From positions 10,790,001 to 10,854,000 of the forward strand of contig CM075988.1 in NCBI GenBank assembly GCA_038087875.1: 64,000 nt of DNA. The letters are read 5' to 3'. The notes beneath the pieces are model-generated. The model did no database searches. It was not told the origin of the DNA and saw nothing but the letters and a program-made list of their open reading frames with translations. Positions within the stretch are counted from its first letter, which is position 1, and each line of letters starts with the position of its first letter. Source of the DNA: Malacoraja senta. Its lineage: Eukaryota. Of the stretch, positions 10,478 to 61,374 are shown piece after piece. A program made the translations under genes and the position numbers.

Positions 10478-10667
10478 TGGGAAGGAACTGCATATGCGTG
10501 TTTAACCTGAAGATAGACACATAATGCTGAAGTAACTTAGCGGGACAGGCAGCATCTCTGGAGAGAAGGAATGGAACACTCTGGTCTCAACCCGAAACAT
10601 CACCCATCCCTTGTCTCCAGAGATGCTGCCTGTCCTACTGAGTTACTCCAGCATTTTATGTCTATAT
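10478..10667. repeat. Fold-back Penelope pLTR-derived repeat
   Basis: GACACATAATGCTGAAGTAACTTAGCGGGACAGGCAGCATCTCTGGAG followed by its reverse complement. Confidence 0.65.
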
Positions 10668-12084
10668 TCATAACTTCTCCCTTTTATGATGGCACGCACT
10701 TAACTTGAGTAGAAGAGTCAGGATGTCATGATGCAGCTTTTATAGGACTTTGGCCAGGCCACGTATGGAGTATTTTTTTAAATCTCTGGAGCATGTCTTC
10801 ATCCAGTTCAAACCACAGAATATAATGACGTTTCTCCATTTATGTTGAAAGGCCCTATACGGAAATCTCTCAAGCAACTCTAATCGCCAGTGACTATAAA
10901 CTGTAAAACGTTGAAAGTGCCAATAATTTGCATGAGAAAAATATGTTAACTCATGTAGAAAGTATTTAACAACAAAATGCCATTTGCCTATGATTTGCAG
11001 GGAATAAATATTTTGTTTTCGGTGATGTTGCTTGAGGTAGGAATATCGATCAAACAGGAGCGGCCCAGTGGCGCAGGGTTAGTTGCTGCCTTAAAGCCCT
11101 GTCTCACGGTGCGAGTTGACCCACGAGTGACCCCGAGTGAAAGACTCGTGGTTGCGTACAAGACCCCAAGTTTATGATCAAGAGTTTAACCGAGTTCCCA
11201 CGGGTATGTCTAAGTTTGCCGTTTACTTCTCATTTCTGCGATGTTCCAAGTTCCTCTCCCGAGTTACCAAGTTCCTCTCGCGAGTTACTCTTGAGCCAAC
11301 CGTGAATGAAGGCCTGTTTTAAGTATCAAATAGAGGAGCTGGACAGCATCTCATACAGTAAGTATATTCTGATTCAGTATTGAAAGTTATTCAATTTCAG
11401 AACTTAAAAAAACTAGGCAGGATCTCCGCCCCGCACTCGCTGCTGTTGTGCAGCAAGGAGGCGGTGGTGGTGAAGCAAGTGTTAAAGAAGACAGCTCCAT
11501 CCTGCGGCTTTTTAAAGGTAGAATTCAGCGCGGCCGCATTTATTGATATGACCTACAAAGGGAAAATGCGCACCGTCCAGTGCCAGAGCTAGGCTGGGAT
11601 CATTCTCTGCTCTCATCTCTCTCTTTCTGTGTGTGCATTTGCAGGGGCACAAGACCTCTGCCGCCTGCCCCTTGCAGCCATCAACTTGTTTGTTCCTTTG
11701 GTGTGCCTCATCTGTCCTGCTCCCATCCCAGCCCTGCCCCAGCTCTCTGCCCCATTCTCTTGGAAATGTCGCTTCCGCAGCTGTAACAAGGAGGGGTCCG
11801 GCTGGCTGGCTTGGTGGGTGGGTGGGTGGGTGGGCAGGGAGGGGGAGTGGGTACAAACCACCGAATCCATTCTCAAAAGTCGGGCAGAGCCATGTAGAAC
11901 TCACGTTTCTCTCTGCGTCATATACGTGGGAATTCCCTCAGTATGGTCACTCAGCGGGCAGGCAGCATCTCTGGAGAGAAGGAATGGGTGACGGGATGAC
12001 GTTTAATATTTAAATCATGGGCAAACCATCTTGCCCCAGGCTGCTTTATATTAATTATTGTGTTGAGTTGTTTGTGAGGCTGGG

Positions 12085-12330
12085 ACATCTCTGAGGGTCG
12101 CCACCTTGTAGTGGAGACATATGCGTGTGCCTTGATCCTGTAAGCTGGCCTCATGGCAGGAAGGTCGAGGGGGAGGTCCCTGACAAAGGGCGTTCCAAGA
12201 AGATGACCTCAGTGGAACAGGCCGAGGATGGTGTTTGACCGGCGGCTGAGAAGGTGGAAGAAGGCTGCAGCAGGGAGAGACTCCCAACCATGGTGGAGCC
12301 CATATCATTGGACCCGGGACTGTCAGTGAA
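12085..12330 (+). mobile_element. RTE-type LINE 5' UTR-like fragment inside the cargo
   Basis: CGCCACCTTGTAGTGG...GGAGGTCCCTGACAAAG resembles the 5' end of RTE-clade elements (recognition only). Confidence 0.4.
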
Positions 12331-12746
12331 TGTTGTCAGGTTAAAGAGGGCGGACTTGTCTGTTCTGAGCAGTCCCTGGGCTTCAGTCAAGGGTCAGTGT
12401 GTGGGGCAGTGCCCTGGAGTATACATCCTGCTGATCCCTGTAGACATCCACCAAGGTTCCCCGCTCCCCGTCCCTCTCTCAATGTGTGACGGAGAATGGC
12501 CGAGACTCTAGTGTACTGAGTTTGAAGCCATTTTACCCTGTCAATGAGGGTGATGAGAAACAGGAAGGACAGTGAGTTGTCCCTTACCCCGACGTAAACA
12601 GACCTTTATTCTGGAATCGACACCACTACTTCTGCTGATCTGGTTTAGAGAGGAAAGATCACAAAGCAAGGTCATATTCAACAAGTGCAGTTTGAGGACA
12701 TTGGATTTTCCTCTCCACATTTTATTGGTTTTTGTAGCCAGAAAAG

Positions 12747-13363
12747 TCAAAACATGCAATCATTATTTTCTTTAATTCTTACGTACCCTCGTGATGTAAA
12801 CATTGTTAATCTCCAGTCAATTATATTCCCTCCTTTACTGAAACAACCCTGACTGATCATCTCTATGTCATTGGGTTGGAGAACATGATCCCACAGGTGA
12901 ACATCAGTTATCTCTCCGAAAAACGACTGACTGGCGTCAAAACCTCCACCGACTGAGTCTTGTTCCTGACCTAGAATAAACTGACCAGACCCTTTCACAA
13001 CCTGACCCTTATCACCAACCTTCCGTACACTGCGTCTCCCATTGACCCAGACTGTTATCTCACCCCCTTGAGACTCCCAGGTCACACAGATGTGTCTCAG
13101 TAAAGAATTCATGTCTGGGATTTAAAACTCTGTTACAAAATTTCCTAAATACAGCCAGAGTTGTGTTTTAGATTCTTCCCAAATCAGCAGTTCGTTGTCG
13201 GAAAAGCTCGTTGCGTAGGAGAGCAAACTGTAAGAGTTAGTCGCTTCAGAGGCTGCCCTGAAACAGACAGTAAAGGCGGTCAAACTGGTGAAGTCAGGCG
13301 CATGCAACCTGACGAAGCTGTTGGGTGTTTTGCTTGAAAATATCACTGATTTCGCATCCAATC
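12747..13363 (-). pseudogene. Short pentraxin (C-reactive protein / serum amyloid P-like) main exon with one nonsense codon
   Basis: ORFs 13122-13391 and 12747-13112 are in the same frame, separated only by TAA at 13122-13124; FTVCF, SDNELL, pentraxin signature HICVTWES, Ca-binding loop GQEQDSVGGGFDASQSF, GNIIDW; splice acceptor TTTTACAG|GA at 13364/13363; AATAAA at 12721-12726 (- strand). No signal-peptide exon seen. Confidence 0.93.
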
Positions 13364-15069
13364 CTGTAAAATGAGAAGTTAAGATTGTCATATGTCAGTT
13401 TAAAGTTGCATGCAGATGGAGCACAAAGACGCAGCAGAAATTTGGAAAAAGTCATCCCGTCACCCATTCCTTCTCTCCAGAGATGCTGCCTGCCCGCTGA
13501 GTTAAAGAGTGCCCACGGTAGACTCACGAGACACTAAGGTAAACTCATGGGCCACTGCGTTCTTACAACGAGTTTAAATGTTTCAATTTTTAACTTCAGC
13601 AGTACATTTTATTCGTGGAAAAGTTTAAACATGTTTGAATTTTTCCAAGAGTTAACAAGTGTCACGGGTACCTGCCGTTAGCGCCAAGAGTCGCTAAGTT
13701 GCGTCCACGAGTTCCGACGTTCCCGCTACGTTAATCGTACGTGATTACCACGAGTTAAATTTGTTTTAAGCTCGGGATACCTCGTGGGTCAGCTCGCACC
13801 GTGAGACAGGGGTTTAACAGTGCCAGAGACCCAGGTTCGATCCTGACCACGGGTGCTGCCTGTACGGAATTTTTACGTTCTCCCTGTGACTGCGTGGGTT
13901 TTCCCTGTGTGCTCCGGTTTCCTCCCACACTCCAAACATCTACAGGTTTGTTGGTTAATTGGCTTCTGTAAAATGTAAATTGTCCCTAGCATGTAGGATA
14001 GTGCCAGTATACGGGGTGATCACTGGTAGGCACGGATTTGCTGGGCCTGTTTCCAGGCTGTATCTCTAAAGTCTAAAGTCTGAAGGTTCGATTGATATTG
14101 TGGGGATCCCTTAAATCTGATTCCCTGCTCCTTCCAAAATGCATAGGTATGTTCAGATTTTGTTGTGCTCAGTTCCTAGAAGATGGCTTGATCCGACTGG
14201 CACACGGAAAGGTACTAACTGAACCACTTGGTGCAAAATGGGAAACAAATTGACTATCGCGACTATTGAGAGACCAAAAGGCTCACCAGTACACTCATTG
14301 GATAATCAGCTAATGGTGTATTCTATGTGATCTCTTGTCCAGATATTGGCACATTAGGGAGTTTTATTTCCACTGTAACTGAAACCAGCCAACTTGACAT
14401 AAATAATCAATCGACTAAAAGGTGGTCCCACATCGAGTGCCTTTACACCACAGCATGCCTTGTATCATATCTATCTCCCAAGTTGTCAGACAGGCTGACA
14501 GATTTTCTTCTCTCTAAGGAGCATTATCTTTTCCTTTACCAACATAGAACAGTACAGCACAGGGCCCTTTGGCCCACAATGTCACTGCTGAACTAATTGT
14601 ATCTACAATTGTGTATTTGTTTATTGAGTTTCTCTTTTTCACACATTAAAGCAACTTTCAGCACTGGAATTACTTTAAATTTAACAGTTAATTGATTTTA
14701 GTGGTGATTCGCAAATCTTTACGACAAATGGCATTTATGCCCATGCTTTACATAATAGCTGCATATGGCTTGCAATAAGATTTGAAACCCTGTCTCCACA
14801 GATGATGCTTTAAGTCATAAGGTCACAAGGAATAGAAGTAGAATTAGGCCATTTGACCCATCCAGTCTACTCCACCATTTGATCATGGCTGATCTATCTC
14901 TCCCTCCGAACCCCATTCTCCTGCTTACTCTCCATAACCTCTGACCCTGGTACCTCAAGTCCCAAGATTTGGTAACCTGCATTATTATGACTGGCTGAGG
15001 AGTCCAATACTTAGGCAATGATCATTTGGACATAAACAACAGCATAAAAGGATCAGATATATCTAAATT

Positions 15070-15270: not shown

Positions 15271-15487
15271 TTATTTAAACTATAAGATTTTACTTCGGAG
15301 TCACGTGAGTGACTACGTGAAGAACCCGTCCAGCACGCATGCGCGACATGAGCGTTCACGCAGTGCAACAGCGACGAACGGGAGTACAAGCTTAAAAAGG
15401 CGGACCGTCAGGTAAGTACTTACTCTAAGGTCGTAATTGGAAAACTTTGCTCTGCTTTGTGTACTCCAGATCGGGAAAAGCTGGAAA

Positions 15488-16716
15488 ATGAGCAAAGCAC
15501 GACAAGGAAAAAGACCGCCCCCCCCGTTCGACTCCAACAGAACAGGAGCGTTCCATCAGTGGGGGGGCGAGAGGCGGCACCTGGACCGCACATGCTGCGG
15601 TCCACAATCATTGATACCGAGCCAAGCCCAGTACCGCTAGCGCAGGCTGACCAACAGCAGCGGACTGGAGGCAAATCAAAACGGAAAACTAACCGGCCAG
15701 TAATCTCTGATGACTCCGACGAGGAAGACTCTCCGCCTGAGAGCGGCAGAGGTAGCCGCCTGAGCCGCATGGAAAGGCTCATGGAGCAAATGCTCCAGCG
15801 AGACTTGCTTCGGGAGCTGGAGCAGTCTCGCCAAGGGAGTTCAGGCACTCCCGCACCAGTGCCTTACAATGCACTGCCCATCGCTTACCCCTCAGCCGAG
15901 GGCAGCGTTGGCGACCCGAGCTGGGCTGGTCAGGAACAGGGGTCACTGGCTGAAGATGTCGGGAGTACGCACGGGGTACAGGACCAGGAAGAGCTGCTGG
16001 GTGTGGTGAATCGCTACGTGGCTACACCACGAGCAGGGCTGCCGTTGCAGCCAAAACTGGTGGCCAACATTGATTACCTGTCCATCAAACCCCTACAAGA
16101 ACAGGTAGTCAATGAGGCACTAGAACTCTACTCGCCTCCGGAGAAATGCATTTCGCTCAACGTACCGGCCGTCAACAGCCAAATCTGGGGGTACGTTGGG
16201 CAGAGTATCCGGAACCAGGAACTAAAATTGCAGCGTATCCTCAAGCTCCTGACGTCAGCCATAACATCCTATGCTCGTTCCGTGGATGGGGTGGACATGA
16301 CCACCAACCAGCAAGACACTCTGGCTCTGCTGAGTAACACCCAATACGAAATAAACAACCTCCGCATGGAGATAATAAGACCTGCCCTCAATCACAAATT
16401 TGCAGGACAGTGCAAAACACCGGCCTCAGAGCCACAGATCCTGTTATTTGGTAAGGACTTGTCAAAACAAGTAAAAGACCTAGAGGAAGAGTCCAAAGCA
16501 TTCGGCCTCATCAGGGCAGGCCCCGGAACGAGCAGACCCACACAACCCAGACGGCAGTACCCCACCGCGTCTACCAGTCGACGTCAAACTCATGGGACTG
16601 GTGAAAGCTCGGGGTCCGCATACCATCCCCGAAAGCCTTTTTTATGCCAGGGCCCAGAGCGGACCCCATGGAAAATGCGCCACCCCCAACCAGCAGTACA
16701 TCCAGCAGCACAATGA
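15488..16716 (+). CDS. DIRS gag-like ORF1 (probable 1-nt frameshift near the start)
   Basis: 419-codon open frame 15457-16716 with P-x(n)-VN-x-x-IW and LLFGKDL motifs typical of DIRS ORF1; ATG at 15488 (MSKARQG) joins the long frame if one A is added in GGAAAAAG (inference). Confidence 0.75.
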
Positions 16717-18674
16717 CGGGTGAAGAAACCGAAGAAAGGAACACTCCCATAACTACGGAGGTAGGTTGGTCTGGTTCCTACCAGCATATAAAAAGTGGGG
16801 GAACTGTACTTACAGGGGGGAGATTACACCTGTTCATGGAAGCATGGAGGTCTATCACGAATGATAGTTATATACTTAACAGTATTCGTGGATACAAAAT
16901 AGAATTTATTCAAGAAAATATGCCACCAGTTCAGCATGCACCCCAAAGGGTCTTTACCCTCTCAGTCAAAGAAAAACTAGAGGGTCAAGCAGAACTGGTG
17001 AGGTTACTTACAAAGGGTATCATTGAGAAATCCAAACATGAACCTTTGGAATTTGTCTCAAATATATTTACCAAAAACAAAAAAGATGGTGAATGTCGCA
17101 TCATCATTGACTTAACCTCACTAAATACCTTTGTTAAGTATATACATTTCAAAATGGAAACATTTGTAACTGCCAAACAACTGATTTCCAAAGGATACTT
17201 TATGGCAAGCATCGATTTAAAAGATGCCTACTATTCAGTACCCATTCAAAAGGATCATCGCAGATACCTGAAATTTACCTGGATGGGGCAACTATGGCAG
17301 TTTAAAGCGTTGCCTAATGGGTTAACATCAGCCCCAAGACTATTTACCAAGATATTAAAACCAGCCTTGGCAACATTAAGAAAACAGAGACATATAGTCA
17401 TGGCATATCTTGATGATATTCTAATAGTAGGCAAAACCATGGAATTGGCTAAATCAGCTGTATTAGCTACCAAACAATTGTTTGAAACCCTGGGATTTGT
17501 CTTACATCCAGATAAATCTAAGTTGAAGCCATCCACAACTATGGACTATCTGGGATTCACAATTAACTCAGTCCACATGTCTGTAACGTTGCCAAAAGAT
17601 AAAGCAGCAGAATTGGCACAGACGTGTATCAATTTAATAGTTAGCAATCGACCAACCATCCGACAAGTGGCAAGAGTAATTGGCAAAATGGTAGCAGCAT
17701 TTCCAGCTACACAATTTGGACCCCTGCACTATCAAAACCTACAAAGGGCAAAAGTACAGGCGTTAAAACGACATGCAGGTCACTTTGACCGAACCATGAA
17801 ATTACCCATTGAAGCAATATCAGAGTTACAGTGGTGGATAGAGCACATTTGGCATAGTTCCAGCCCTATCATCATCAATAACCCAACATTAATTATACAA
17901 ACAGATGCCAGTGCTCAAGGCTGGGGAGCAACTAATACCATATCCAGCACAGGTGGTAGATGGACTAACCTAGAATCATCTTCACTACAAACACTGGGCA
18001 TAAATTACTTGGAAATGTTGGGTGCGTTTTATGGTTTAAAAGCATATTCTACGAATATGCATCATTTGCATGTTCGTTTACAAATTGATAATACCACGGT
18101 GGTGGCCAATATTAACCATATGGGCGGAATAAAATCGATATCATGTGACAATTTGGTCAACAAAATCTGGCAATGGTGTGTCGATAGACATATTTGGCTA
18201 TCAGCAACTTACCTACCAGTGGCAGACACCAGGTCACGCAAATTCAGTGATAACACCGAATGGATGTTAATTCCTATAGCTTTTGCTAAAATTACAAAGC
18301 AATATGGCACACCAGATATCGATCTCTTTGCATCCAGACTAAATCACCAGGTACCAATGTATGTCGCTTGGGAACCAGACCCTGAGGCAGCAGCGATAGA
18401 TGCATTCGCGCTGAACTGGGGAAACTATTTATTTTATGTTTTTCCCCCCTTCTGCCTCATCAGTAGGGTACTACGCAAAATACAGATGGACTCTGCTTCA
18501 GGTATTTTGATAGTACCCGACTGGCCTACACAGCCATGGTTCCCAGTGGTCCTCGACATGGTCATCGAAACTCCTATGACCTTTCCCAGTAGCCCAGACC
18601 TATTGACTCACCCGGTATCAGGCATAAGTCATCCATGCCATGACAAAATTAACCTACTGGGTTGCAGATTATGA
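16644..18674 (+). CDS. DIRS pol: reverse transcriptase, RNase H and N6-adenine methyltransferase-like domain
   Basis: IDLKDAY, LPNGLTSAPRLFTK, YLDD; RNase H TDAS, INYLEM, DNTT, ADTRSR; C-terminal DLFASRLN...YVFPPF...PDWPTQPW. Start codon uncertain. Confidence 0.93.
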   Translation: MPGPRADPMENAPPPTSSTSSSTMTGEETEERNTPITTEVGWSGSYQHIKSGGTVLTGGRLHLFMEAWRSITNDSYILNSIRGYKIEFIQENMPPVQHAPQRVFTLSVKEKLEGQAELVRLLTKGIIEKSKHEPLEFVSNIFTKNKKDGECRIIIDLTSLNTFVKYIHFKMETFVTAKQLISKGYFMASIDLKDAYYSVPIQKDHRRYLKFTWMGQLWQFKALPNGLTSAPRLFTKILKPALATLRKQRHIVMAYLDDILIVGKTMELAKSAVLATKQLFETLGFVLHPDKSKLKPSTTMDYLGFTINSVHMSVTLPKDKAAELAQTCINLIVSNRPTIRQVARVIGKMVAAFPATQFGPLHYQNLQRAKVQALKRHAGHFDRTMKLPIEAISELQWWIEHIWHSSSPIIINNPTLIIQTDASAQGWGATNTISSTGGRWTNLESSSLQTLGINYLEMLGAFYGLKAYSTNMHHLHVRLQIDNTTVVANINHMGGIKSISCDNLVNKIWQWCVDRHIWLSATYLPVADTRSRKFSDNTEWMLIPIAFAKITKQYGTPDIDLFASRLNHQVPMYVAWEPDPEAAAIDAFALNWGNYLFYVFPPFCLISRVLRKIQMDSASGILIVPDWPTQPWFPVVLDMVIETPMTFPSSPDLLTHPVSGISHPCHDKINLLGCRL

Positions 18675-19648
18675 AAAGACCACTGCTGGGCCTGGCATTT
18701 TCTGACAGGACCATCAACACGATGACAGCGTCCCACCGTATGTCCCCCAGGAAACAATACCTATCGAGCATCAGGAAGTGGGAAAGATACTGCTCGAATA
18801 CTGGGACAACATACTCATCTACAAACATAACCAATGTACTGGAGTTCCTGGCCGGCCTTCACCATAATGAAGGACTGAGCTACAGCGCCATCAATACTGC
18901 CAGAAGTGCTCTGTCAGCCTACTTAAAACAGGCACCAGGACAACAGGCCATAGGGTCTCACCCGCTGGTGATCAAACTCATGAGGGTTATATTCAACTCC
19001 AACCCCCCTAGACCTAGGTATACCCAAATCTGGGATGTCAGTGTGGTCCTGACATACCTAAGGGGATGGTCACCAGCCAGGTCTCTCACCCTGGAACAGC
19101 TAACCCTGAAAACGGTCATGCTGATGGCACTAGTCTCAGCACAAAGAGTCCAGTCCCTCCACTTACTGCAACTGGACAACATGATTATATCACCAGACGG
19201 TGTCTCATTCACCATTCAGGAGCTGGTAAAGCAGAGCAGGCCAGGAACTTCAGGCCTAGTTATGGATTTCCGGGCATACCCACCTAATCCACGGTTGTGT
19301 GTCATGACTCACCTACTCACTTACATCAACACAACAAGAGATTCCCGAGGGAGAGAAAAAGCCTTATGGGTCAGTCACAAGAAACCTCATGGTCGGGTGT
19401 CGAGCCAAACCATCTCAAGATGGCTCAAGCAGGTACTGGGAGCTGCTGGAGTAGATACTGACGTATATACATCTCACTCCACTAGGGCAGCATCCACATC
19501 GGCGGCTAAAAGAATGGATGTACCACTAGACCACATCCTGGCTACAGCGGGGTGGTCCATGGAGAAAACGTTCCAAACGTTCTACAACAAGCCGCTAGCA
19601 GAACCTGTGTTATTTGCAGAAAGAGTTTTAGAATCTGCAAATATATAA
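18662..19648 (+). CDS. DIRS tyrosine recombinase
   Basis: SAQRVQ (R), HSTRAASTS (HxxR), AGWS and FQTFYNK (Y); SAM-like N-terminal region GLSYSAINTARSALS. Confidence 0.93.
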   Translation: MQIMKRPLLGLAFSDRTINTMTASHRMSPRKQYLSSIRKWERYCSNTGTTYSSTNITNVLEFLAGLHHNEGLSYSAINTARSALSAYLKQAPGQQAIGSHPLVIKLMRVIFNSNPPRPRYTQIWDVSVVLTYLRGWSPARSLTLEQLTLKTVMLMALVSAQRVQSLHLLQLDNMIISPDGVSFTIQELVKQSRPGTSGLVMDFRAYPPNPRLCVMTHLLTYINTTRDSRGREKALWVSHKKPHGRVSSQTISRWLKQVLGAAGVDTDVYTSHSTRAASTSAAKRMDVPLDHILATAGWSMEKTFQTFYNKPLAEPVLFAERVLESANI

Positions 19649-20126: not shown

Positions 20127-23100
20127 AGGGGATGAGAAACGAGCTCCTGGCTTATGTCCAGGAGCACGTCTCGTTAACCCCTTCAACCAACAGTTGATTC
20201 TTATTGAAATCAAAAATATTGGTTTAATAATTAAACTCCGATATATATATATATGTTATAAGGAAATATCAGGGTAAAATTGTATTATATATCTGAATGT
20301 GAGGCCTCGTTTTAATATTTTAATATGTTATGATTAACTAAGAGAGCGGAGCTATTTGAGTAACAACGCAATGGAAGTCAAAACAAGGTTTTTTCCCACC
20401 TACAGGTGGGACACTCGCTACAGTGCCGACTATATCAGACACTGTAGCCTCACTTTTTTAGTTTTTTTTTTACCACATAAAATCACTTGTTTGTGTTTTG
20501 TGTTTAGTGATAAGAGTAAAATGGACATACCAGCAAAAGTTAATAATTCAAAAACTCCCCCAATACCTAAAGACCTGGGACATGGACGCACCACAAGATT
20601 CAAAGGTACTATAATTATTCAAAATGCATGACACCACACAAAAGAACCTAGGAGGAATCTCATTTTGTAGTTGGAATATAAGAGGTATTAACGAACCTAT
20701 CAAAAGGGGTAAGATATTAGCTCAGCTAAAAATGTACAATTCTGACATTACCTTCCTACAAGAAACACACCTAAAACCTCAGGATCAAGTTAGGCTGAGG
20801 GCGAAATGGATAGGTCAAACATACCATTCTTCATTTACTTCAAAATCTAGAGACACGTCAATTATCATAAGAAAAGGTATACCATTTAAAGCAAAGAATA
20901 TTATAACAGATATAGAAGGGAGATACCTAATAGTTAATGGAGAAATCCATGACACTCCACTTACTTTGGTAAATATATATGCCCCTAACTTTGATAACCC
21001 CCACTTTTTCAATAAAATCTTCAATATAATTGCAGAGTCAAACTATCAAAATGTTATAATAGGCGGAGACTTTAACAGTGTTTTAGATCCGTACTTAGAT
21101 AAATCAAGTCAAAAACAGAGAGGGAATATGAAATCGAAAACTGGGGAACTCCTCAATACCTATATAAATAACACTAATATAGCAGATGTTTGGAGAATTG
21201 TGAATCCAACTGGCAGGGAATATTCGTTTTACTCAATGGTACATAAGACATACTCACGTATAGACTACTTTCTGCTGGATACAAAATTAATCCCCCAAAC
21301 ATCTAATGCAATATACCATACAAATTCAATTTCAGACCATTCTCCACTAACTTTCTTTTTAAAACTGGAAGGATTGTCTAAGAATAAATCATTCTGGAGA
21401 TTTAACTCTCAAATTTTAAAAGATCCACAAGCGAGTATATATTTAAAAGAACAAATGGAGGTCTTTTTTCAAACAAATGATACTTCAGATATATCGCCTA
21501 CTTTATTTTGGGAATCTTTTAAAGCATACATTAGGGGTATTATAATTTCATATCAAGCTTTTCAAAATAAAAAGAATAAGAATGAACAAAGACAGTTAGA
21601 AGAACTTATTAGACAAATGGATATAGATAATGCTAAAGATCCATCAATAGATAAACATAATAAAATAATAATTTTAAAATTTAAATTAAATAAATTATTA
21701 TCTGCCAAACTTATAAGACTTTTTCAAATTACAAAACAAGAGCACTTTGAATTTGGGGATAAACCGCATAAACTTTTGGCTCGTCAGCTAAAAAAACGAG
21801 AAAAGGAACATACTATACCAAAGATCAAATCAGATAAAGGGGAATTATTAACAACACCGAAGGATATTAATAAAAGATTTGCGCAATTTTACGAGAATTT
21901 GTATACATCTAAAACGATAATTGATTCCAATAATATCACAAAGTTCTTGGATACCTGTAATCTTCCAAAGTTAGAGCTGAAGGAACAAGAGGAACTGGGT
22001 GCACAAATCTCAATTAAGGAATTAGAAGATACAATAAACTCATTAAAGAATGGAAAAACACCAGGCCCTGATGGATTTACTAATGAATTTTATAAAAGCT
22101 TTTATGATAAAATAATACCAAGATTACAAAAAATGTACCAATACGCTTTTAAAAAACGAATACTACCTGATACATTAGCGGAATCAACGATTACATTAAT
22201 ACCTAAGAAAAATAAAGATTTAGAAGAACCTGGCTCATATAGAGCTATAGCATTGTTAAACACAGATCAAAAAATATTAGCGAAAACATTAGCTAGAAGA
22301 TTAAGTAAATACATTAGTAAATTAATAAACCCAGATCAGACAGGGTTTATCCCTAAGAGATACTCTTCTAATAATATGAGACGTCTACTCAACATAATGC
22401 ACTCACACAAATCTGAAGATCAAGAATTATCAATTATTTCGCTGGATGCTGAAAAAGCATTTGATCAAGTAGAATGGAATTATATGGATAAAGTATTACA
22501 AAAATTTCAACTGGGAGAGAATTTTATTTTATGGATTAAGTTACTATATAACAAACCTACAGCTAGAATACTTACTAATAACATATTATCCTCGAAATTT
22601 CAACTATCAAGGGGAAATAGACAAGGATGCTCATTATCACCACAGCTGTTTGCTCTCATTATTGAACCGCTAGCAGAAAAAATTAGAATACACCCTGATA
22701 TTCATGGATATAATACTAAAGACTCATATAATAAAATATCTTTATACGCGGATGATATATTATTGTATATTACAAAACCTCAAATCACTATACCAAATAT
22801 ATTAAATTTAATTGAAGACTTCGGATCTTTTTCAGGATATAGAATAAATTGGAATAAAAGTGAAATTATGTCAATAAAACTGAAAGATTCAACACATCTT
22901 TTAAAATTCCCTTTTAAAATAGCTACAGAAAAATTTAAATATTTGGGAATCGAAATTACCAGAACATATCAAGGTATGTTCAGGGCAAATTTTGACCCCC
23001 TACTTAATAAACTAAATACATTAATTAAATTCTGGAAAACGCTCCCGATGTCTTTAATAGGCCGAATATACGCAATAAAAATGATCTTTTTACCACAAAT

Positions 23101-24832
23101 TTTATACCTATTTCAATCAATTCCTATATACTTACCTAAGAAGTTTAAAAAAAAACTCGACTCAGATATCACTAATTTTATATGGGACTATAAATCACAT
23201 AGAATACAAAAAACCCATCTGAATAAACCTAAAGTATTGGGGGGTCTAGCACTACCTAATTTTATGTATTATTATTGGTCAGTAAATATTAAAAACATGA
23301 TTCAACTGATGGATAACTCCGCCCAGCAAGTAGACTGGATTGTAATGGAGAAAGAGGATTGCTCCTCTAGAAACATTGGAGCGATCCTCCTCTCTCCAAT
23401 GAAACTGAATAACATAAATTATAATAAGAACCCAATTATTCATAGTACAATCCGTATTTGGAAACAAATAAAACAAAATTTAAAATTAAGAAACTTATCA
23501 CTTTTATTACCTATAGTCAATAACCCTTCGTTTAGTCCTTCTATTATAGATAAAGCTTATACACAATGGGATAGACTAGGAATTAAAACGCTTGGTGACT
23601 TGTATGAAACTGGAAAATTACTTTCATTTCAACAATTACAAATAAAATATAAACTCGGAAATAATCAATATTTTAAATATTTTCAAATATGCGACTATTT
23701 GAAAAAATATACAAAAGATCATTATAATAATCCAGTAGATGTATTGGACGAGGCAATGCAGATAAAAGCAGAATCAGCAAACTTAATATCATATTTGTAT
23801 AATATTATTTTAAATGTACAAATACCATCTACGGAGGGTATCAGAAGAGACTGGGAACAAGAGTTAGCTATTAAAATTTCAAAGGAAAGTTGGAATGAAT
23901 ACTTATTAAACGTGCATAAATGCTCGATTAATGTAAGACACACTTTAATACAATTTAAAATTTTACATAGATTATATTATTCGAAAACTAAAATTCATAA
24001 AATTTTCCCAAACGTATCATCTATTTGTGATAAATGTCAATCCCAAGAAGCAACTATAGCGCACTCATTTGTCTTCTGTACAAAAATTCAAAAATTTTGG
24101 AATGACATTTTTGAAATCTTTACAAAGTTATTTAAAACAAGACTGATACCCAAAGCAGAATGGATTATCTTCGGAATAACGGAAGATGATCCAGAACTAA
24201 ATGTGTTTCAAAAGAAATTAATGGATTATGGGTTAATAACTGGGAAAAAGCTAATTCTAAAATTTTGGAAGAAGGCTCCAATACCAACTATAAATATGTG
24301 GATTTCAAATATGTTTGAAACATTACACCTAGAAAAGATAAGACTCCTCCTAGCAGGTAAACCAGATCACTTCCACCTGACGTGGTCTGCATTTATAGAA
24401 TTATTACAAACATAGGGTGCAAAAGTACTTTAAAAAAATAAAAAATTGAGGTCAGGTAAGGGGGGATGATAGTTGAAGAGTTGGTATGTCCTATTTACGT
24501 GATGCTCAAAAAAAAAACATTTGTTTCTCTTTTTTTCTCTTTCTCTTTTCTTTTCTTAGGGCCTATTTCTTAACTCTTTTTCTTTTTGTTTTTAATTTCG
24601 CTCTTATAGGGTCTTCGACCTTTTTTGTTGTTACATTTTCTACACTTTTCTACACTTGCACTTTTTCCTTCACTTTCTTCTTTCTTTCAATCTTTTCCTT
24701 TTCTAGTGTAAAAAATAAAAAATAAAGGGAGTACATTAATTGTAAGAAGATATAAATGACGAGTATTAATGTATGTGGTTGTAATGTAATGTACTTCTAA
24801 TAAATAAAAATTAAAAAAAAAAAAAAAAAAAA
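20127..24832 (+). mobile_element. LINE-1 clade element, 5'-truncated near the end of ORF1, recent insertion
   Basis: 14-bp TSD AAACTTCAAACTGG (20113-20126, 24833-24846), AATAAA then poly(A), TT|AAAC target, T-rich 3' UTR. Confidence 0.95.
20624..24415 (+). CDS. L1 ORF2: APE endonuclease, reverse transcriptase, Cys-rich domain (1263 aa, uninterrupted)
   Basis: SWNIRG, QETH, GGDFN, SRIDYF, SDH; GPDG, LDAEKAFD, RQGCSLSP, YADD, KYLG; CDKC...H...C. Confidence 0.97.
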   Translation: MHDTTQKNLGGISFCSWNIRGINEPIKRGKILAQLKMYNSDITFLQETHLKPQDQVRLRAKWIGQTYHSSFTSKSRDTSIIIRKGIPFKAKNIITDIEGRYLIVNGEIHDTPLTLVNIYAPNFDNPHFFNKIFNIIAESNYQNVIIGGDFNSVLDPYLDKSSQKQRGNMKSKTGELLNTYINNTNIADVWRIVNPTGREYSFYSMVHKTYSRIDYFLLDTKLIPQTSNAIYHTNSISDHSPLTFFLKLEGLSKNKSFWRFNSQILKDPQASIYLKEQMEVFFQTNDTSDISPTLFWESFKAYIRGIIISYQAFQNKKNKNEQRQLEELIRQMDIDNAKDPSIDKHNKIIILKFKLNKLLSAKLIRLFQITKQEHFEFGDKPHKLLARQLKKREKEHTIPKIKSDKGELLTTPKDINKRFAQFYENLYTSKTIIDSNNITKFLDTCNLPKLELKEQEELGAQISIKELEDTINSLKNGKTPGPDGFTNEFYKSFYDKIIPRLQKMYQYAFKKRILPDTLAESTITLIPKKNKDLEEPGSYRAIALLNTDQKILAKTLARRLSKYISKLINPDQTGFIPKRYSSNNMRRLLNIMHSHKSEDQELSIISLDAEKAFDQVEWNYMDKVLQKFQLGENFILWIKLLYNKPTARILTNNILSSKFQLSRGNRQGCSLSPQLFALIIEPLAEKIRIHPDIHGYNTKDSYNKISLYADDILLYITKPQITIPNILNLIEDFGSFSGYRINWNKSEIMSIKLKDSTHLLKFPFKIATEKFKYLGIEITRTYQGMFRANFDPLLNKLNTLIKFWKTLPMSLIGRIYAIKMIFLPQILYLFQSIPIYLPKKFKKKLDSDITNFIWDYKSHRIQKTHLNKPKVLGGLALPNFMYYYWSVNIKNMIQLMDNSAQQVDWIVMEKEDCSSRNIGAILLSPMKLNNINYNKNPIIHSTIRIWKQIKQNLKLRNLSLLLPIVNNPSFSPSIIDKAYTQWDRLGIKTLGDLYETGKLLSFQQLQIKYKLGNNQYFKYFQICDYLKKYTKDHYNNPVDVLDEAMQIKAESANLISYLYNIILNVQIPSTEGIRRDWEQELAIKISKESWNEYLLNVHKCSINVRHTLIQFKILHRLYYSKTKIHKIFPNVSSICDKCQSQEATIAHSFVFCTKIQKFWNDIFEIFTKLFKTRLIPKAEWIIFGITEDDPELNVFQKKLMDYGLITGKKLILKFWKKAPIPTINMWISNMFETLHLEKIRLLLAGKPDHFHLTWSAFIELLQT

Positions 24833-32276: not shown

Positions 32277-34462
32277 AACCCCTGTTACACTGTGCGAGCT
32301 GACCCACGAGGTACCCCGAGTTTAAAACAAATTTAACTCGTGGTAATCACGTACAATTAACGTAGCGGGAACGTCGGAACTCGTGGACGCAACTTAGCGA
32401 CTCGTGGCGCTAACGGCAGGTACCCGTGAAACTTGTTAACTCTTGAAAAAGTTCATGTTTGAACTTTTCCATGAGTAAAATGTACTCTTGAGGTTAAAAT
32501 TTGAAACATTTCAACTCGTTGTAAGAACGTAGTGGCCCATGCGTTTACCTTTGTGACTCGTGATTCTACCGTGGGAACTCTTTTTAGAAACAATAATCAG
32601 GGACAGAAATATCAGTTACTTAGACATTTTAAAGACAAATTCTGCTTAACAAAGTAAAAGTTGTTGATAAGGTGACAGAGTGGGTTGAAAAGAAAAAATT
32701 GCTTGAAGTTTATATATAGATTTTGTGTATTTGGGACTGAGACTTTTCGTTGTCTCTGTACTGTACACTGCACAATGACAATAAAGTTGAATCTGAATCT
32801 GAATCTGAGATAACAACCTTAAGACAAACCAGTATTGAGGAACAGCGTGAGAACATTTTATGACACTTCATGGCAGCCTAATCTGAGGTTTGCCAGTCAC
32901 GTCCAGAAGCCATCTCTACCAGTGCTGTTGAAGAAGACAGGGTTGTGTTCACCTCTCCTGCACCCCTGTTCCGTAGGACAACACCAACTCTTTCATTATG
33001 CGGATGTTAAAGGCTGGGTTTTATTCTCAAGCCATGATGCCAGATTCCCGATCTCTTTACTGAACTTTACTGAATCAAAGGGTTCTATATGAGGTGCTGC
33101 CTCAAAAAGGCAGCCAGCATTGTCATGGACCCACACTACCCTGGCCATGCTCTCATTTCATTCCTGCTGAGCAGAAGGTATAAGAATCTGAAAACCATGA
33201 CCACCAGGTTCAAGAACAGCTTCTTCCCAACAACCATCGGGCTCTTGAACGCTACAAATGCTAACTAAACTATGAACTACAAACTGCCTTGGTTGCACTA
33301 AGGACTTTGGGATTTTTGCAATAATACTGAATTTTTTAATATATATTTTCTTTGTTTAGTATATTATCTATGAGTATTGTGTTTACTGGCCTGTTATGCT
33401 ACTGCAAGTGGGAACTCTTTAACTCAGAGGGCAGGCAGCATCTCTGGAGAGAAGGAATGGGTGATGGGATGACATTTCCAAATTGGGGGAGGGGGGGTGA
33501 GGTGGGTGGGGTGGAGGAGAGGGGGTGGAGAGTGGAAGGAGAGGAGGGGGAGACAGATGGGGGTGTCTTCATTCACTGGCTGCGGGTGCCTGTCACTGAA
33601 ACAGGTAGGTGAGATTTCACATCCACCTTGTGTGTGTGTCTCTCTCTCCCTCCCTCCCTCTCACACAGGCTGAGAGACTCTGCCTCTGTGAGTGTACGTC
33701 CCTTTCTCCCCCTCTCCCTGGGCTCTATACGCTAATTGTTTCCTATGAGAGACTTTGAAAAATAAGAATCACATTTCACACATTGATTTTATGACTTTTA
33801 ATTCTTAACATGACCATAATCACAATCTTTTGTCATGTTTCATCAGTAGAGGTCCCAAGTTATTCTTCAGCTCATTAAAGAGCTCAGGTGAAATTCTGAT
33901 GAAATTTTTAAATGCAGATTTATCCTCTTCGCACAGCACATTAAGCAGCTTTTCATACTGTCCAAAGAGAGATCTCCTTTGAAACAGGGGCTTCACCCAC
34001 TGAGACCTCTTCTTAATTTTCCTCTTTACTCTCTCTCTTCTGCCATCATTACACAAGCGTCCTTGCATCACATAAAGGGCTGCTGCATACAGCACTTGAA
34101 CAAAAAACATCACCATCCTGGACTCCAATAGCCTTCTTGCAGACATTTTCTCCAAATGAGCCAATTTAAACAAGGCAGGCTTTTTATAGCATGTAAAAAA
34201 AAGCATGACATCATTTTTTTAACATGTGATGTTTTTTCAACACGTCGATATACATTGTTGCCTCAAGATTAACGGGAGAGGAACTTGGTACACTCGGGAG
34301 ACGAACTTGGAACATCGCAGAAATGAGAAGTAAACGGCAAACGTAGACATACCCGTGGGAACTCGATTAAACTCTGGATCATAAACTTGTAGTCTCGTAC
34401 GCAACCACGAGTCTTTCACTCGGGGTCACTCGTGGGTCAACTCGCACAGTGAAACAGGGCTT
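32277..34462 (-). mobile_element. Non-autonomous PIF/Harbinger element, copy 2
   Basis: TIRs AACCCCTGTTACACTGTGCGAGCTGACCCACGAG / CTCGTGGGTCAACTCGCACAGTGAAACAGGGCTT; exact TAA TSD (32274-32276, 34463-34465); ends are the reverse complement of copy 1. Confidence 0.88.
33820..34146 (-). pseudogene. Harbinger transposase N-terminal fragment
   Basis: RSQWVKPLFQRRSLFGQYEKLL...EDKSAFKNFIRISPELFNELKNNLGPLLMKHD fits the W-V-x-P...F-x-N-F-x-R-x-S...F-x-x-L N-terminus of HARBI1-type transposases; DDE domain absent. Confidence 0.8.
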
Positions 34463-59763: not shown

Positions 59764-61374
59764 CAGTGCATTCAGAAAGTATTCAGACCCCTTCACTTTT
59801 TCCACATTTTGTTATGTTACAGCCTTATTCTAAGATGGCTAAAATTCATTTTTTTTTATCATCAATCTACACACAATACCCCCAAAATGAAGAAGCGAAA
59901 ACAGGTGTTTGGAAATTTTTGCAAGGTAATTAAAAAGATATAACTGAAATATCACATTTACATAAGTATTCAGACCCTTTGCTATGACACTCACAATTGA
60001 GCTTGGGTTCATCCTGTTTCCATTGATTATCCTTGAGATGTTTCTACAACTTGATTGGAGTCCACCAGTGGTAAATTAAATTGATTGGACATGATTTGGA
60101 AAGGCACACACCTGTCTATATAAGGTCCCACAGTTGACAGTGCATGTCAGTGCAAACTCCATGCCATGACAAGAAAGGAATTGTCCACAGACCTCCGAGA
60201 CAAGATTGTGTCGAGACACAGATCTGGGGAAGGGTATAAAACAATTTCTGCAGCATTGCAGATCCCAAAGAGTACAGTGGCCTCCATCATTCTTAAATGG
60301 AAGAACTTTGGAACCACCGGGACTCTTCATAGAGCTGGCTGCCTGGCCAAACCGAGAAATCGGGGGAGAATTGCTTTGGTCAGGGAGGTGGTCACTCTGA
60401 CAGAGCTCCAGAGATCCTCTGTGGAGATGGGAGAACCTTCCAGAAGGACAACAATATATGCACCAATCAGGCCTTTATGCTAGAGTGACCAGACGGAAGC
60501 CACTCCTCAGCAAAAGGCACATGACAGCACGCTTGGAGTTTGCCAAAAGGCACATAAAGGACTTTCCGACCATGAGAAACAAGATTCTCTGGTCTGATGA
60601 AACCAAGATTGAACTCTTTGGCTTGAATGCCAAGCGTCACGATTGGAGGAAACGAGGCACTGTTCATCACCTGGCCAATACCATACCTACAGTGAAGCAT
60701 GGTGGTGGCAGCATCATGCTGTGGGGATGTTTTTCAGTGGCAGGAACTGGGAGACTAGTCAGGATCGAGGGAAACATGATCTGAGTAAAGTACAGAGAGA
60801 TCCTTGATGAAAACCTGCTCCAGAGCATTCTGGACCTCAGACTGGGGCGGAGGTTCACCTTCCAACAGGACAACGACCCGAAGCACACATCAAGACAACA
60901 CAGGGGTGACCGTAACAATTCTGTGAATGTCCTTGAGTGGGCCAGCCAGAGCCCGGAATTGAAGCCGATCGAACATATCTGTGGGGACCTGAATATATCT
61001 GTTCATTGGCGCTCCCCATCCAACCTGACAGAGCTTGAGAGGATCTGCAGAGAAGAATGGGAGAAATTACCCAAATACACGTGTGTCAAGCTTGTGGCAT
61101 CATACCCAAGAAGTCTTGAGGCTGTAATCGCTGCCAAAAGTGCCTCAACAAAGTACAGAGTAAAGGGTCTGAATACTTATGAAAATATGATATTTCAGTT
61201 ATTTACTTTTAATTACTTTGCAAAAATTTCTAAACACCTGTTTTCGCTTTTTTTATTATGGGGTATTGTGTGTAGATTGATGATAAAAAATAATGTAATC
61301 CATTTTAGAATAAGGCTGTAATGTAACAAAATGTGGAAAAAGTGAAGGGGGCTGAATACTTTCTGAATGCACTG
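59764..61374 (+). mobile_element. Tc1-family DNA transposon (IR/DR type), full length, decayed
   Basis: ~215-bp TIRs starting CAGTGCATTCAGAAAGTATTCAG with an inner AAGTATTCAGACCC direct repeat; TA TSDs not preserved; sits in a CR1 3' UTR. Confidence 0.93.
60166..61171 (+). pseudogene. Tc1 DD34E-type transposase, frameshifted
   Basis: ELSTDLRDKIV...GYKTIS (paired-like), [43 protein letters not shown] spread over several frames. Confidence 0.92.

Follow-up and report, generated by a model that had tools for sequence, protein, structure and literature searches.

Transposons that carry captured pieces of host genes between terminal inverted repeats (TIRs) have been described in plants, where they are best known, and in animals. 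A survey of such Pack-TIR elements in animals reported 370 cases with a median cargo of 224 bp, of which 4 were multicopy, with 3-5 copies (PMC8277862); 21 rows of its Supplementary Data 1 are PIF-Harbinger elements from frogs and alligator, and the only cartilaginous-fish row found in it, that of the elephant shark, lists 0 Pack-TIRs and 0 Harbingers. Passages of a second study (PMC9179366) also report Harbingers to be absent from the elephant shark, and these, like passages of a maize study (PMC8903248), include a 3-bp TWA target-site duplication (TSD) in the definition of Harbingers. Maize Pack-PIFs are described in the latter passages as lying at TTA/TAA sites and forming large clusters. 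Here we analyze an element at positions 11094-13814 of a 64,000-nucleotide stretch of Malacoraja senta DNA (assembly GCA_038087875.1, contig CM075988.1, positions 10,790,001 to 10,854,000 of the forward strand), the whole of which is referred to as the window. A preliminary description made from the letters alone had read the element as a Harbinger transposon carrying the mature-domain exon of a short pentraxin. The present results make it very probable that it belongs to a non-autonomous skate PIF/Harbinger family that behaves like the Pack-TYPE transposons of plants, has made two captures, and carries its cargo as a passenger.

The skate family resembles Pack-hAT-N8_XT of the frog and Ssk-FB4 of Drosophila (PMC8277862) in holding host DNA in a non-autonomous TIR element with distinct TSDs, and resembles the multicopy animal Pack-TIRs of the same survey in having a TIR-free parent elsewhere, microhomology at a breakpoint and, as in the FoSTeST model, a template switch followed by transposition. 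However, those elements have 3-5 copies as compared with 41 or more and about 102 for the two skate cargos, which measure 0.6-1.9 kb and include whole coding exons. Ssk-FB4 contains an almost complete gene, which is translated, whereas the skate cargo lacks the promoter and first exons, and its copies are decaying. The frog and alligator elements share with the skate family their superfamily, a vertebrate host, and captured host DNA, but their cargo is about 100-800 bp, they lie mostly near the parent on the same scaffold, and no large amplified subfamilies are shown. Maize Pack-PIF and rice Pack-MULE elements (PMC8277862 and passages of PMC8903248) also carry gene fragments and undergo serial accretion and shuffling of modules, and the plant Pack-TYPE elements of these sources have TTA/TAA TSDs and clusters of tens to >100 copies; the skate family differs from them in its animal host, in its innate immune receptor cargo, and in capture evidence that favors internal gap filling over fusion of neighboring insertions. 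The phenomenon, of which the preliminary description knew no report, is therefore not new as a kind, being represented by the animal Pack-TIRs and, in the passages cited, by the maize Pack-PIFs. The variant is new, a vertebrate Pack-Harbinger family that amplifies two innate-receptor pieces at plant-like copy number; no description of it was found in the literature searched, repeat libraries lying outside that search.

Structure of the Element and Its Insertion Site

The element and its surroundings consist of the following parts.

11062-11093, plus strand: 5' piece of an interrupted short interspersed nuclear element (SINE), boundary approximate
11091-11093, plus strand: left target-site 3-mer, TTA
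11094-11137, plus strand: left TIR, with a 19-nt core
11138-11589, plus strand: left subterminal and internal modules that occur in other family members
11590-11948, plus strand: internal segment, occurring in the pentraxin-free relatives L116-L119, L125, L136, and L139
11949-12004, plus strand: left internal arm, left over from the 380-bp inverted repeat inside the acceptor element
12005-12746, minus strand: captured pentraxin 3' untranslated region (UTR) and downstream flank, with two internal deletions relative to the parent
12747-13363, minus strand: last exon of the pentraxin gene, as captured, encoding the mature domain in 204 codons and a stop; identity to the parent on G000:C263 96.6%
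13122-13124, minus strand: premature stop at codon 80 (TAC to TAA), present in this copy alone among 37
13364-13425, minus strand: captured intron end including the splice acceptor, with the 11-bp deletion that marks the short subfamily
13422-13502, plus strand: right internal arm, standard in many family members
13503-13770, plus strand: right subterminal region
13771-13814, plus strand: right TIR
13815-13817, plus strand: right target-site 3-mer, TAA
13818-14080, plus strand: 3' piece of the interrupted SINE, boundary approximate
32277-34462, minus strand: second member of the same TIR family, with TAA/TAA flanks and the start of a Harbinger transposase

The TIRs are 44 nt long, within the range of about 25-50 bp characteristic of the PIF/Harbinger superfamily, with 89% complementarity over 47 nt when the 3-mers are counted, and the flanks TTA and TAA differ by one mismatch. 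Removal of the element restores the SINE; the resulting join is spanned by 30 of 89 SINE-like matches in the window and the fetched loci, and 19 of these 30 are gap-free near it. The exon (617 nt, minus strand) has its acceptor AG at 13365-13364, contains the single TAA, matches Pfam Pentaxin in both halves (E 4.9e-38 and 6.1e-13), and is accompanied by AATAAA signals at 12721-12726 and 12605-12610. The preliminary description was thus accurate as to the TIRs and TWA flanks, the clean insertion in a SINE, the complete mature-domain exon with acceptor and polyadenylation signal, and the one nonsense codon. Its figures for the neighboring parental DNA hold in part. An intron piece is present but, instead of about 75 bp, comprises only about 62 bp of parental intron (13364-13425), the remainder to 13502 being the element's internal arm. 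The downstream flank, given as about 700 bp, is derived from the parent over about 740 bp but is not contiguous parental DNA, internal deletions having removed about 570 bp and about 1.9 kb. This copy represents a 2.7-kb deletion form, the other size form being 3.3 kb.

The first 229 nt of the module region at 11138-11589 are common to nearly all family members, and 11299-11467 is additionally present in L192, a long element with a different cargo, TLR7. The left internal arm opens with a fragment of a common palindromic repeat. Two readings of a 56-nt inner inverted repeat, as a trace left by the pentraxin capture and as a mobile unit nested in the element, were rejected because both arms (380 bp) occur in the pentraxin-free elements L188 and L190, the right arm occurs in many members, and the repeat has no TSD of its own. 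No host gene around the insertion was found among 62 of the 65 long open reading frames (ORFs) of the window and one exon half, a scan that could miss small exons; the domains in the scanned ORFs were of transposon types and pentraxin only.

Copies and Mobility

The mobility that had been proposed is borne out by copies at distinct TWA sites. At least 40 cargo matches (92-100% identity) were obtained with 40 of 582 candidates scored, many of the candidates being repeats, and the C-terminal part of the exon gave 59 matches with all 68 candidates scored. Combined, the searches yield at least 41 distinct element loci and one parent, and the identical structure at 41 distinct loci excludes a chance origin. 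Both ends lie within the fetched DNA at 27 of the 41 loci; all 27 flank pairs are different, TWA is present on both sides in 24, and the 3-mers are identical in 20. The other 14 loci are shortened, interrupted, or run beyond the fetched stretch. A public DNA run (X1), possibly the source sample itself, gave contigs in which depth is about 100 over the cargo and 5.4 over the left flank, which is unique. The left cargo junction is also crossed by a contig from a different organism (X18), which extends 55 letters past it on the shorter side.

The long subfamily (3.3 kb, 10 copies) retains two stretches that are found in the parent or its paralog, 11 bp in the intron and about 570 bp in the flank, whereas the short subfamily (27 copies, including that of the window) lacks both; divergence from the parent is 2.0% and 2.9%, respectively. 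All copies lack about 1.9 kb of the parental flank and, because the left break of this gap sits inside a SINE, the loss points to a deletion within the element. The mean divergence of the copies from their consensus is 1.4-1.6%, and their tree is star-like. The pentraxin elements at L070, L023, and L025 sit within or next to further members of their own TIR family, an arrangement through which modules may have been shuffled.

Parent Gene and Capture Junctions

A search for the parent had been proposed on the expectation of a two-exon gene. An intact parent was found on G000:C263, but its 226-aa ORF belongs to a gene of three exons. The first is non-coding and preceded by a TATA-like box, as read from the sequence; the signal-peptide exon has its ATG at 112944 and its donor at 112880, and the last exon starts at 111676. 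The gene is of the short pentraxin type, with a signal-peptide exon and a single pentraxin-domain exon, and the cargo is the domain exon only. Its nearest named proteins are SAP-like, CRP-like, and mucosal pentraxin-like proteins of skates (68-96%). No TIRs were found at the cargo ends of the parent locus, and no element remnant at either parental breakpoint. The elements retain 62-73 bp of intron and genomic 3' flank beyond both AATAAA signals and, with the parent found to contain this intron and flank, the claim of capture at the DNA level, as opposed to retrocopying, stands.

The promoter and signal exon match two places only, both of them native genes (2 of 2). A pentraxin paralog 21 kb from the parent has 57% amino acid identity to it and a 3' flank in common. 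Between these paralogs (G000:C263 110612-111154 and 131334-131896; L062 and L064), the 3' flank and promoter are 88-96% alike but the protein 57%, a pattern suggestive of gene conversion or of a recent exchange of segments; the parent lacks about 180 bp of 3' flank that the paralog and the cargo retain. A Harbinger-like miniature inverted-repeat transposable element (MITE) is located in the parental intron at G000:C263 111954-112258 (L062), about 210 bp from the capture endpoint; it is 75% identical to the right end of the window element and lies outside the captured piece.

The type of element that received the cargo is represented by L188 and L190, cargo-free relatives that agree with the window element over the left 911 nt and the right 390 nt but differ in the interior, which a 380-bp inverted repeat encloses. 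L190 matches the window element at its positions 3-911 (90%) and 2329-2720 (92%) and does not match the cargo; in the loaded element the L188/L190 interior is replaced by parental DNA. At the right junction, parent and acceptor agree over exactly 4 nt within a longer imperfect match, and in the window copy this microhomology is 13422-13425, the last 4 nt of the captured intron. The same two junctions in all copies examined indicate a single capture event.

Relationship to PIF/Harbinger Transposons

Exact matches to the 19-nt TIR core number 1580 genome-wide, as against 0 for the reversed control, which corresponds to a TIR family of about 790 elements or more. Two transposase-coding Harbingers of the same genome, L196 and L197, have DDE_Tnp_4 domains and TWA duplications and carry a 10-nt TIR core (one variable base) at the same offset as the window element; L197 also has a weak MADF/Myb match (E 0.0036). 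It should be noted that their TIRs differ from those of the window family outside this core, and they are relatives rather than proven partners. The family member at 32277-34462 contains about 104 N-terminal transposase codons at 33823-34143, right behind its left end. Over 64 residues they align with the L197 transposase at 48% identity (E 5e-20), and with the DDE_Tnp_4-bearing transposases of 28 other fetched loci at 43-52%. The fragment itself gave no match in Pfam or the protein database, and a protein search made with it for an autonomous partner found none among 175 candidates. Because this member keeps a transposase N terminus, the TIR family is a Harbinger deletion derivative. Among family members with neither pentraxin nor TLR7, TWA is present on both sides in 13 of 14 complete copies. 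The Harbinger assignment of the preliminary description therefore holds on the TWA flanks, the terminal motif shared with coding Harbingers, and the transposase start in a member. The 32277-34462 member also has an insertion of about 820 bp near its right arm.

No transposase or Myb/SANT ORF was found in 11094-13814 or in 19 fetched members; thus the window element and the sampled members are non-autonomous. A tblastn comparison of two local transposases and a Myb piece with the 19 members and the window element also gave no match. The other sampled members are mosaics of non-coding modules, and in six representative members (98 ORFs, 59 scanned) a single ORF, that for TLR7, matched Pfam. Further subfamilies with the same TIRs have apparently non-coding interiors: L178 and L186 (3.7 kb), L171, L174, L177, and L185 (2.0 kb), L176 and L182 (2.2 kb), and L180, L181, and L187 (2.5 kb).

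A Second Cargo from TLR7

Of the first 30 left-TIR matches on C1, 3 are in pentraxin elements and 4 in elements with a different ORF, which is that of TLR7 (best solved-structure match TLR7, E 1.4e-69; 91% to thorny skate TLR7). This second cargo supports the view that the family picks up innate-immunity exons. The TLR7 sister subfamily comprises about 102 loci, as estimated by merging 150 listed rows by eye, with 150 of 304 candidates scored. At all 14 loci fetched, one or both ends of the family adjoin the TLR7 piece; of 10 loci examined for TSDs by script, 8 are complete, and 7 of these have TWA on both sides. The cargo falls within residues 481-1001, the 3' half of the gene, and its sub-forms (residues 481-845/856, 654-845/863, and 654-1001) make up a nested deletion series.

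No intact native TLR7 was found among the 150 scored candidates, among 12 matches to the Toll/interleukin-1 receptor domain, among 9 matches of another search, or among the 44 matches of a stricter one; this may reflect a gap in the assembly or search, or loss of the gene. The only two Toll/interleukin-1 receptor domains of TLR7 type that were found are shortened and lie inside elements L192 and L193. A 981-aa TLR on C3204 was considered as the native gene and rejected, its Toll/interleukin-1 receptor domain being only 44% alike. A GC-rich 981-aa TLR of another subfamily occurs in near-identical form at L191 (947-3889), L194, and L195, on two small contigs, as either a real duplication or haplotigs. 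Passages of a recent preprint (bioRxiv 10.64898/2026.03.23.713620) report extra pseudogenized TLR7 copies in Rajiformes, which are very likely to be this TLR7 cargo itself; the string "transpos" does not occur in its main text, and the passages give neither a mechanism nor a copy number. The skate family would account for these extra pseudogenes.

Fate of the Captured Exon

Taken together, the copies yield a consensus with an open reading frame, which shows that the exon was captured intact. The TAA at 13122-13124, for which a check of other copies had been proposed, is absent from them and private to the window copy. Relative to their own subfamily consensus, the 37 copies have 57 synonymous, 156 nonsynonymous, and 15 nonsense changes, about 9-10 stops being expected under neutrality. 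The ratio of nonsynonymous to synonymous changes (pN/pS) is 0.79, 0.93, and 1.08 at kappa 1, 2, and 4, indistinguishable from neutrality (p 0.14-0.65), and a signature of selection on the copies, for which a test had been proposed, did not emerge. Even in the seven intact copies (L003, L004, L008, L011, L018, L023, and L074), pN/pS is 0.92 (18 synonymous, 42 nonsynonymous), and 15 of 37 copies carry a stop irrespective of indels. No copy has a promoter or signal-peptide exon. With these parts missing and the reading frame decaying neutrally, the cargo is most likely a passenger.

No RNA dataset was listed as containing the cargo stretch, a result that is neutral as to its expression. Transcription was assessed in one stranded poly(A) run (X22) from a related organism, of which about 6% was sampled, the tissue being unspecified. 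Sense-strand reads extend over the exon and 3' UTR at a depth of 87-325 and stop just beyond the second AATAAA; antisense reads over the exon amount to about 1% of sense, and depth is 0 at 13411. All reads have the parental base at the 6 of 6 listed sites that distinguish parent from copy consensus (170-343 sense reads per site), the comparison resting on these six, with 193 further difference rows not shown. The transcript is that of the native gene. The full-length skate pentraxin paralogs in the protein database lie together on one chromosome-size sequence per species, which fits tandem duplication and not dispersal by a transposon. Outside that cluster sequence, a little skate gene model (XP_055504310.1, P0019; 154 aa, "mucosal pentraxin-like") lacks a signal peptide and differs at 4 of 141 residues from the long-subfamily consensus but at 12 of 141 from the native protein of that species; by this sequence comparison it is likely to be a cargo copy. 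The suggestion that such elements provide a route to pentraxin copy-number change finds no support in the evidence from promoter and signal exon, neutral decay, RNA alleles, and paralog clustering; the loaded elements are not shown to lead to new pentraxin genes, and a function for the cargo is not supported.

Capture Model and Alternative Explanations

In the reading that we regard as very probable, an autonomous Harbinger would have given rise to the TIR family through internal deletion, and a member of the L188/L190 type, with its 380-bp internal inverted repeat, would have lost its interior. During repair or replication, a template switch at short microhomologies into the pentraxin gene would then have copied a stretch of at least 1.9 kb, and probably 3.7 kb, that spans the late part of intron 2, the last exon, and part of the 3' flank. 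The next step would have been the spread of the loaded element to at least 41 TWA sites with transposase supplied in trans by a partner that was not found; presumably the 3.3-kb form spread first and the 2.7-kb deletion form of the window later. A separate capture would have taken the 3' half of TLR7 and been amplified to about 100 sites. Several observations weigh against parts of this account. The tree of 37 copies, parent, and paralog (five fetched loci being omitted, four split by insertions and one a duplicate of L030) does not resolve the order of the subfamilies, with 0 of 36 branches starred. At the left junction, a 5-nt microhomology requires a 2-nt loss and is ambiguous. No autonomous element with the exact TIR was present in 30 fetched of 150 listed DDE_Tnp_4 loci (534 candidates), and the native parent of the TLR7 cargo was not found in the assembly. 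As to the passenger status of the pentraxin cargo, some 1-2-nt indels may be assembly errors that inflate the count of broken copies, five X22 reads touch the intron near 13376, and X22 is a single sample of another species in which the splice partners of the acceptor are not displayed.

According to a model proposed for plant Pack-TYPEs in passages of PMC8903248, two family elements inserted around the exon could have lost their inner TIRs and moved as a unit. The MITE in the parental intron, so close to the capture endpoint, agrees with such an origin; however, it lies outside the captured piece, the parental breakpoints have no element remnant, and the cargo is joined not to TIR ends but to internal arms that are found cargo-free elsewhere, and we consider this route unlikely. 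It is extremely improbable that the copies are an assembly artefact or a segmental duplication: several of them do lie on small unplaced contigs and could be haplotigs, but the flanks of 27 are all different and carry TWA duplications next to the TIRs, the excess cargo depth comes from an independent-looking DNA run, and the left junction is bridged in another organism. Because the parent, the cargo-free acceptor, and the long and short forms survive in one genome, the capture mechanism can be read directly, and a vertebrate Pack-TIR family at plant scale thereby bears on the competing models of gap filling (FoSTeST) and neighboring insertions.

The remaining alternatives concern the significance of the cargo. 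That intact copies are spliced through the captured acceptor, or add to the number of pentraxin or TLR7 genes, is very unlikely. The cargo was intact at capture and is still open in 7 of 37 copies, the acceptor and polyadenylation signals are retained, and a probable cargo copy has been annotated as the 154-aa little skate gene; against this, the intact copies also evolve as if neutral, promoter and signal exon are confined to the two native genes, and the RNA sites, in one run of a related species, carry the parental allele with no depth at 13411. Nor is it at all likely, although slightly less remote, that the cargo aids the transposon or regulates the parents, through small RNAs against pentraxin and TLR7 or through tempered silencing. 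Both coding cargos are innate pattern-recognition genes and together account for about 18% of the approximately 790 elements, and epigenetic conflict is reported for maize (10.1101/777037); however, detection is easiest for large single exons, recognizable coding cargo is missing from most sampled members, and antisense reads are scarce. The pentraxin cargo having been the starting point, enrichment for immune cargo rests on one unselected observation, and the immune character of both cargos is suggestive. The broader proposition, of a plant-style Pack-Harbinger that preferentially captures pattern-recognition pieces and whose roughly 140 copies act on immunity via small RNAs or spliced exons, is equally doubtful. 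The family also serves as a warning that transposon cargo inflates the counts and annotations of immune genes in skates, a likely example being the 154-aa model, and it makes cross-silencing of parents by captured pieces testable in a vertebrate.

Other Features of the Window

A short palindromic repeat at 10508-10670 (67-nt arms, 87%) is very abundant in the sequencing runs, and pieces of it begin the inner arms of the element; it may resemble the ends of Penelope-like elements. On the plus strand, 15352-19648 contains three long overlapping frames (454, 689, and 331 aa) with RVT_1 and a weak tyrosine-recombinase match, a layout that is presumably that of a young DIRS-type retrotransposon. 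An uninterrupted 1266-aa frame at 20615-24415 (plus strand), which is AT-rich and has endonuclease, reverse transcriptase, and zf-RVT matches, is apparently an intact ORF2 of an L1/Tx1-type long interspersed nuclear element. A fragmented Tc1/Sleeping Beauty-like transposase (HTH_SB, HTH_Tnp_Tc3_2) is located at 60124-61321, also on the plus strand.

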